Source: Escherichia coli (GTDB taxonomy: Bacteria; Pseudomonadota; Gammaproteobacteria; Enterobacterales; Enterobacteriaceae). From it: a stretch of 64,000 nt of DNA. The notes under the pieces are model-generated. The model was given only the letters and a program-made list of their open reading frames with translations, searched no databases and was not told where the DNA came from. The stretch lies in NCBI RefSeq assembly GCF_048403405.1, contig NZ_CP183129.1; one strand, written 5' to 3'. This document shows, piece by piece, positions 14,409 to 15,022 of this stretch (position 1 is the stretch's first letter; every line of letters starts with the position of its first letter). Made by a program: the position numbers and the translations under genes.

Positions 14409-15022
14409 TGAACTCCTCGTGCTTTATTATTATAAAAGCACAACGCATTTATACTCATATTAATTAACGAAACACTGATACAGTTTGATTTATTCTTCGC
14501 TCAAACTCATTAGCTTAAATTCTTTACCCACAACTGTAGCATATATAATATTATCAAAAGTCAAAGCTGGGACTATCAAATTTCGCTCATTTTCAAAAAT
14601 ACAATGTGATTTTAGCAATCATCTTAATCGCAGGATCTCTTATTGCATGTGAAAAATTCTGTAATGATTAGACAATAACCGCGTTCATTTATCACGCGTT
14701 ATAAATGTGAAACTGGCTTCTTGCAGATGCTCTTAACCTCTACAGGAGGATTTATCCCGCCATTTCAGAACTATCATATTTACCTTAAATGATCATTTCA
14801 GCCATATAACACGCTCAACCTCACAAATGGTTTACACTGTCTATTGTTTGGGTAATTTAAGTAAGTCAGCTACGAGCAACCTTGAGTGGGTAGCCAGCAA
14901 TGGACTCAAACCCAATCAGGTGTTCAGATTGTTTCAGAATTGTACTAAAAACAATGTATTAAATAATCTGATAGTGTTTGGTCGTAGTGTGACACAGACA
15001 GCAAGCTAATAAGGAAATGATT

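Follow-up and report, generated by a model that had tools for sequence, protein, structure and literature searches.

The 60-codon open reading frame (ORF) that lies directly upstream of ybjP in this Escherichia coli genome is very probably not a protein-coding gene but an accidental open frame running over an islet-supplied ybjP promoter and its 177–208-nt leader. The window, meaning the whole stretch of DNA that was analysed, comprises 64,000 nt of contig NZ_CP183129.1 (assembly GCF_048403405.1), and all positions refer to its first letter. In the proposed scheme, an AT-rich islet inserted between ybjQ and ybjP would have displaced the ybjP promoter known from K-12, and its right arm would supply a promoter and a long 5' leader to ybjP in islet carriers. 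Transcription of ybjP in O157:H7 proceeds mainly from positions 14844 and 14846, just 3' of the hexamer TACACT, with the result that most ybjP mRNAs begin past the ATG of the ORF and codons 7–60 would serve as leader only. As promoter and leader, the segment is already documented in published start-site data.

The islet between ybjQ and ybjP

The gene order in the window is ybjS, amiD, ybjQ (12072–12395, minus strand), an AT-rich stretch with one long ORF, ybjP, and artPIQM. In MG1655, ybjQ and ybjP are divergent and separated by 125 bp. The window and K-12 are collinear on the left side to ~12452, and collinearity returns on the right side at ~15005–15009 with the patch ATAAGGAAAT-ATTATG, which is the ribosome-binding site and start codon of ybjP. 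Between these points ~2.55 kb in the window stands in place of ~50 bp of the K-12 spacer. The ORF is located inside the right arm of this islet with its stop codon on the junction. The features of the region are:

12453–15004, no strand assigned: AT-rich islet replacing ~50 bp of the K-12 ybjQ–ybjP spacer, delimited by comparison with K-12 and by composition, without terminal repeats
12606–14408, minus strand: gene for a 600-aa pentapeptide-repeat protein, the sole long gene of the islet and divergent from ybjP, identified from the ORF list and Pfam
14827–15009, plus strand: 60-codon ORF, read here as a chance ORF from shuffled sequences, the missing Shine-Dalgarno sequence, the lack of outside homologues, nonsense alleles, and absence from the Sakai Ribo-seq list
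15011–15015, plus strand: ybjP Shine-Dalgarno sequence AAGGA, in a patch (~15009–15018) that together with the ATG is common to K-12
15023–15538, plus strand: ybjP, encoding a DUF3828 lipoprotein (PGAP; Pfam PF12883, E = 1.7e-31)

The start of ybjP at 15023 is the PGAP placement in identical and related genomes. A repeat search at the islet termini found no meaningful direct or inverted repeats and none that would mark a mobile element. Of 5426 complete E. coli genomes, 1128 have the right islet arm. When the 600-aa protein was searched against GTDB, with one genome for each species, to find the islet outside E. coli, the only locus recovered was on an E. coli-like contig in a Collinsella metagenome-assembled genome (MAG). 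This 2972-bp contig (JAIJJM010000403.1, locus L013), binned as 'Collinsella sp.', holds the islet including the small ORF region and encodes a protein 97% identical to that of the window, which indicates contamination of the bin.

Divergence from K-12 does not end at the spacer. Within ybjP, 62 differences from K-12 (~20%) fall in the first 300 nt, whereas the rest of the gene differs by ~2%, with the strong divergence extending to ~15305–15320. Across the 5426 complete genomes two classes of the 5' part of ybjP can be told apart, one of ~2258 genomes with at least 95% identity to the window and one of 3138 with 80–90%. This part of the gene (15023–15320) is strongly dimorphic in E. coli, and the islet is present in only 1128 of the ~2258 window-like genomes. 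Carriers of the islet are also distinct in their codons for the YbjP signal peptide, MRYRSLSLLIPC as opposed to MRYSKLTMLIPC. The closest islet-free allele, found in AVS0790, combines a window-like ybjP with a K-12-type spacer and K-12-type signal-peptide codons, and joins the window haplotype at about nucleotide 50 of ybjP (~15072). These comparisons bear on the preliminary description of the ORF, which had proposed that it might mark the true islet junction. Relative to K-12 this holds, as collinearity resumes at ~15005–15009 on the ORF stop, but the islet-linked haplotype itself runs on for ~50 nt into ybjP.

The pentapeptide-repeat gene is intact in the window. Its Pfam Pentapeptide_4 matches are weak and it has no solved relative; one source names it a 'putative type III effector'. 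Among the 120 matches listed for the 600-aa protein, all are at least 94% identical and, where named, come from E. coli or Shigella. The gene is frameshifted, truncated, or split in many carriers, including O157 Sakai (ECs_0949/ECs_0950), 042, ST2747, WL297, and N96.

Transcription starts, promoter, and leader of ybjP

Cappable-seq of O157:H7 EDL933 provides three transcription starts for ybjP (gene 4960) in Table S5 of PMC10469882. These were placed on the window via the ybjP start at EDL933 position 1032835, and the sequence around all three is identical in the two genomes. The starts and the elements putatively associated with them are:

14846, plus strand: start at EDL933 1033012, 177 nt from the ybjP ATG, used in exponential phase in LB, M9, and salt and in stationary phase in salt (PMC10469882)
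14844, plus strand: start at EDL933 1033014, 179 nt from the ybjP ATG, used in stationary phase in LB and acid (PMC10469882)
14815, plus strand: minor start at EDL933 1033043, 208 nt from the ybjP ATG, used in exponential phase in salt and in stationary phase in M9 and salt (PMC10469882)
14833–14838, plus strand: TACACT, a –10-like hexamer over ORF codons 3–4, ending 7 nt before 14846 and identical in the two islet haplogroups, with a putative promoter role
14805–14810, plus strand: TATAAC, a –10-like hexamer ending 4 nt before 14815 and kept in haplogroup B
14846–15022, plus strand: 177-nt 5' untranslated leader of ybjP, enclosing ORF codons 7–60, with a folding z-score of –1.65 and no Rfam match

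The main start cluster at 14844 and 14846, which accounts for six of the eight conditions, falls in ORF codons 6–7, 17–19 nt 3' of the ORF ATG (+18/+20). Transcripts from these two positions cannot encode the ORF because they start 3' of its ATG. The minor start at 14815, seen in three of the eight conditions, lies 12 nt before the ATG; its transcript takes in the whole ORF with a 12-nt leader that lacks a Shine-Dalgarno sequence. EDL933 is a different strain from that of the window but belongs to the same islet haplogroup, and shares with it the sequence at the three starts, the gene order, and the distances of 177, 179, and 208 nt to ybjP. Given this identity, the same starts are expected to be used in the window strain.

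The position of the ybjP start in MG1655, 56 nt upstream of the ATG (PMC10469882, Table S5), is informative in this respect. Both this start and its –10 element TATTAT are inside the ~50 bp that the islet replaces. Since the K-12 promoter region is gone, islet carriers must use a different promoter for ybjP. K-12 and islet strains have the same downstream gene and the same ribosome-binding and start-codon patch (ATAAGGAAAT..ATG), but the leader in islet strains is more than three times longer and unrelated in sequence.

From their positions, TACACT and TATAAC would be the –10 elements of the ybjP starts. Scans with a σ70 consensus and a position weight matrix (PWM) found no plus-strand site that scores better than in shuffled sequence, leaving both hexamers without statistical support. 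The top PWM match, CTCACA-16-TATTGT, was rejected as it misfits the published start sites. The K-12 ybjP promoter is reportedly regulated by σS (Lacour and Landini 2004, as cited in PMC13082787), and if the promoter is σS dependent, a weak –35 element is unsurprising.

The leader displays little sign of structure. No terminator-like site was found in 14300–15100 and hence none lies between the start sites and ybjP. RNA folding was not significant for 14690–15040 (z = –1.5) or for the 177-nt leader (z = –1.65). A scan of 12300–15700 against Rfam gave no match in the spacer 14409–15022 at E up to 1. Elsewhere in the scanned region, a Bacteroides sRNA family matched inside the pentapeptide gene, and a sub-threshold CRISPR-DR53 match was found at 15568–15604 (minus strand) in the ybjP–artP spacer (25.9 bits against a gathering threshold of 45, E = 0.07). 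The latter is probably a chance match to a hairpin 3' of ybjP.

Two independent IS1 insertions occur upstream of ybjP, at ~14690 in CUWW06 and at ~14832/14833 in MEW (loci L003 and L006). In CUWW06 the element adjoins 14690 and the islet to its left is gone. In MEW it adjoins TACACT, replacing everything 5' of this putative –10 element.

The reading frame and its variation

The ORF starts with ATG at 14827 on the plus strand and has a GC content of 0.39; its translation is as first reported. It ends with TAA at 15007–15009, 13 nt before the ybjP ATG. In the 17 nt 5' of its ATG there is no pairing to the anti-Shine-Dalgarno sequence (0 kcal/mol), compared with –6.2 kcal/mol for ybjP in the same test. 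The composition, the distance to ybjP, and the lack of a convincing ribosome-binding site are thus as given in the preliminary description. The length of the ORF does not exceed chance, as 19–34% of spacer shuffles hold an equally long one. In 5000 dinucleotide-preserving shuffles of the 614-bp spacer (14409–15022, GC 0.345), an ORF of at least 60 aa was found in 18.9% with an ATG start and in 33.7% with any start codon. The position of its stop is explained by the conserved ribosome-binding patch of ybjP (A-TAA-GGA), which is also present in K-12 and happens to carry an in-frame TAA.

The peptide has a narrow distribution. Among 5.8 billion proteins it forms four clusters, all from E. coli or Shigella and at least 90% identical. 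An exhaustive phmmer search of 1.84 billion representatives returned the haplogroup B copy as its sole homologue; weak matches to four long, compositionally biased proteins (P0005–P0008) were rejected as homologues. No family in Pfam or NCBIfam matches it. Some annotation pipelines call the ORF a hypothetical protein, and no annotated feature lies under it in any of the ~130 matches listed from the 1128 islet-carrying complete genomes. The current RefSeq record (NZ_CP008957.1, 1032836–1033458) no longer has the tag EDL933_RS04965, whose place is between RS04960 (ybjP) and RS04970 (the islet gene). In the 2023 start-site paper gene 4965 is a minus-strand hypothetical protein with a start at 1033043 (PMC10469882). 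EDL933_RS04965 is probably a withdrawn annotation of the 60-codon ORF; this fits a history of being annotated once and then dropped.

Published data sets give no sign that the ORF is translated. Huecker et al. 2017 (PMC5597208) applied Ribo-seq to all intergenic ORFs of O157:H7 Sakai with a length of at least 30 aa under three conditions, using permissive thresholds (1 RPKM, 50% coverage, RCV 0.25) by which 465 ORFs were accepted. The resulting table has no entry between 1015351 and 1036840, and the ORF is located at complement(1033079..1033261) in Sakai. It resembles this set of small ORFs from enterohaemorrhagic E. coli (the XECs set) in being intergenic, at least 30 aa long, present in an O157-type genome, and hypothetical in some pipelines, but differs in being outside the 465 with an accepted ribosome-profiling signal. 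The EDL933 translatomics supplements contain neither the 60-aa peptide nor YbjP. As with the start sites, these data describe O157 strains under laboratory conditions. The Sakai Ribo-seq table also lists a translated 96-nt ORF, XECs086, at 1036840–1036935, which corresponds roughly to the tail-to-tail overlap of ybjS and amiD at ~11150–11250 of the window, a placement that is approximate because of islet indels.

Variation among strains was analysed in an alignment of 11 genome loci with the islet arm and K-12 as the islet-free reference, with Shigella and other loci added later. The islet sequences split deeply into two haplogroups: A, with the window, O157, 042, and S. sonnei among its members, and B, which is of the WL297 type and is found in ~20 complete genomes. 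A metagenome scan using a 20-mer across the ORF ATG yielded 52 contigs, all of which belong to haplogroups A and B or their minor variants, with no more divergent islet among them.

Nonsense alleles of the ORF are common in nature. An 81-nt sequence with the allele K13* (14863 A to T, AAG to TAG) is matched exactly in 100 of the 1128 carriers (~9%), and the allele occurs in 7–8 of the 52 metagenome contigs. It was verified by translation in strain ST648, in which ybjP is intact. A second nonsense allele, Q37*, was found in one metagenome contig, and in strain MEW the IS1 element follows codon 2 of the ORF while ybjP is intact. Polymorphism within haplogroup A is neutral in pattern, with seven missense, two nonsense, and two synonymous changes (3.0 synonymous expected, P = 0.85). 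S. sonnei has one more missense change, V22I, which came to light later and is additional to those tested.

The comparison between haplogroups gives a different picture. In the ORF they differ at 16 sites, distributed as 1, 6, and 9 over codon positions 1, 2, and 3, with nine of the changes being synonymous. In the ORF frame pN/pS is 0.20 and pS is 0.24, whereas the other two forward frames have pN/pS of 2.8 and 0.72. In a permutation test that moved every substitution to a different site occupied by the same base, nine or more synonymous changes arose in 0.35% of trials, or in 0.54% if no new stop codon was allowed. The corresponding P value is 0.0035 for all 16 differences and 0.0045 when the 14 fixed sites are used. 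In the adjoining spacer outside the ORF, any 16 consecutive substitutions include at most eight synonymous changes whichever of the six frames is read, and this maximum is reached in two frames. Conversely, several of the six second-position changes are radical (S to I, V to G, T to K), and the protein identity of 90% is no higher than the DNA identity of 91%. Pooling of all sites leaves the excess of synonymous changes short of significance (P = 0.067). The frame remains open across ~9% divergence between the haplogroups, but 42% of random placements also leave it open.

The differences between the haplogroups are also unevenly distributed. They reach ~17% at ORF positions 50–96 and 147–181 and are absent from positions 1–49, and one recombinant haplotype (L009) changes from one type to the other between 14818 and 14876. 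Any argument from uniform constraint on the ORF is weakened by this mosaic. On a larger scale, the right 333 bp of the spacer are ~92% conserved between the haplogroups and the left 281 bp ~78%, with a 57-nt invariant block at 14819–14875. The conservation gradient carries on smoothly into ybjP (pS 0.08–0.12). For comparison, the pentapeptide-repeat gene differs between the haplogroups by 19% in DNA, with a pS of 0.40 and a pN/pS of 0.34. The low divergence of the right half was rejected as a sign of constraint as the gradient enters ybjP, there are recombinants, and the length of the invariant run lies in the expected range; by our own estimate the longest run expected from 28 differences in 333 nt is ~45 nt.

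Alternative readings and the regulation of ybjP

The preliminary description had left open whether the ORF is spurious or encodes a small islet-borne protein. The first option is supported by the missing ribosome-binding site, a length at chance level, the nonsense alleles, the lack of a Ribo-seq call, and a main ybjP start 3' of the ORF ATG. The second has nothing in its favour beyond a nominal synonymous excess between two islet haplogroups, and the two properties by which that description proposed to judge the ORF, a signal of translation and a conserved reading frame, are largely lacking.

It is nonetheless worth considering what a coding ORF would entail. The ORF could encode, or have recently encoded, a 60-aa islet protein that is translated without a Shine-Dalgarno sequence from the 14815 transcript and is now under relaxed selection or in decay. 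We regard this as unlikely. It would account for the nine synonymous changes out of 16 (P about 0.004) and for a pN/pS below that of the pentapeptide gene. The minor start 12 nt 5' of the ATG is active in salt and stationary conditions, some pipelines call a hypothetical protein, and decay of the whole islet is plausible given that its main gene is a pseudogene in many strains. Against this, the ORF has no Shine-Dalgarno sequence and no homologue beyond E. coli and Shigella, 9% of carriers have nonsense alleles in addition to the IS1 disruption, polymorphism in haplogroup A looks neutral, the pooled test is not significant, and the second-position changes have left the protein no better conserved than the DNA. 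The ORF is also unlisted in the Sakai Ribo-seq screen, and the main transcript lacks its ATG. A more specific version, equally doubtful in our estimation, is that purifying selection acted while haplogroups A and B were diverging and was followed by nonsense loss in lineages such as ST648, as would befit a young or decaying lineage-restricted small protein. Were the coding interpretation correct, E. coli would gain a further strain-specific orphan micro-protein. A chance ORF leaves a single point unexplained, the surplus of synonymous changes between the haplogroups, which comes from one long branch with 16 substitutions.

Two non-coding or partly coding roles were weighed alongside. Translation of the ORF, ending on the ybjP ribosome-binding site, might tune ybjP by coupling or by opening of the leader, as would a regulatory upstream ORF. 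Its stop at 15007–15009 (the next TAA in haplogroup B) adjoins the ybjP Shine-Dalgarno sequence, and the leader is long (177–208 nt) and folds slightly better than shuffles. However, the main transcript starts past the ATG, the ORF lacks a Shine-Dalgarno sequence, the folding score falls short of significance, and no terminator-like element was found. In addition, the widespread K13* allele (100 genomes, ybjP intact) would stop translation ~145 nt before it could reach the ybjP ribosome-binding site, and the stop position is already accounted for by a patch common to K-12, which has no such ORF. This role is accordingly very improbable. Least credible of all, with hardly any weight assigned to it, is a small regulatory or structured RNA independent of ybjP. 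The higher conservation of the right 333 bp and the 57-nt invariant block would fit such an RNA, but the Rfam search up to E of 1, the terminator search, and the folding scores (z of –1.5 and –1.65) were all negative. Mosaic recombination explains the conservation, as seen from the gradient into ybjP and the recombinant L009, and the mapped starts are assigned to ybjP.

The reading of the ORF as an accidental frame over the ybjP promoter and leader takes a false candidate off the list of genes and accounts for its removal from the RefSeq annotation. Its wider meaning concerns ybjP itself. About a fifth of E. coli, as represented by 1128 of 5426 complete genomes, would express ybjP from an islet-supplied promoter with a leader of 177–208 nt instead of the 56 nt of K-12. 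Recent work describes YbjP as a lipoprotein that partners TolC (PMC13082787). The regulation of ybjP may therefore differ between groups of E. coli strains.
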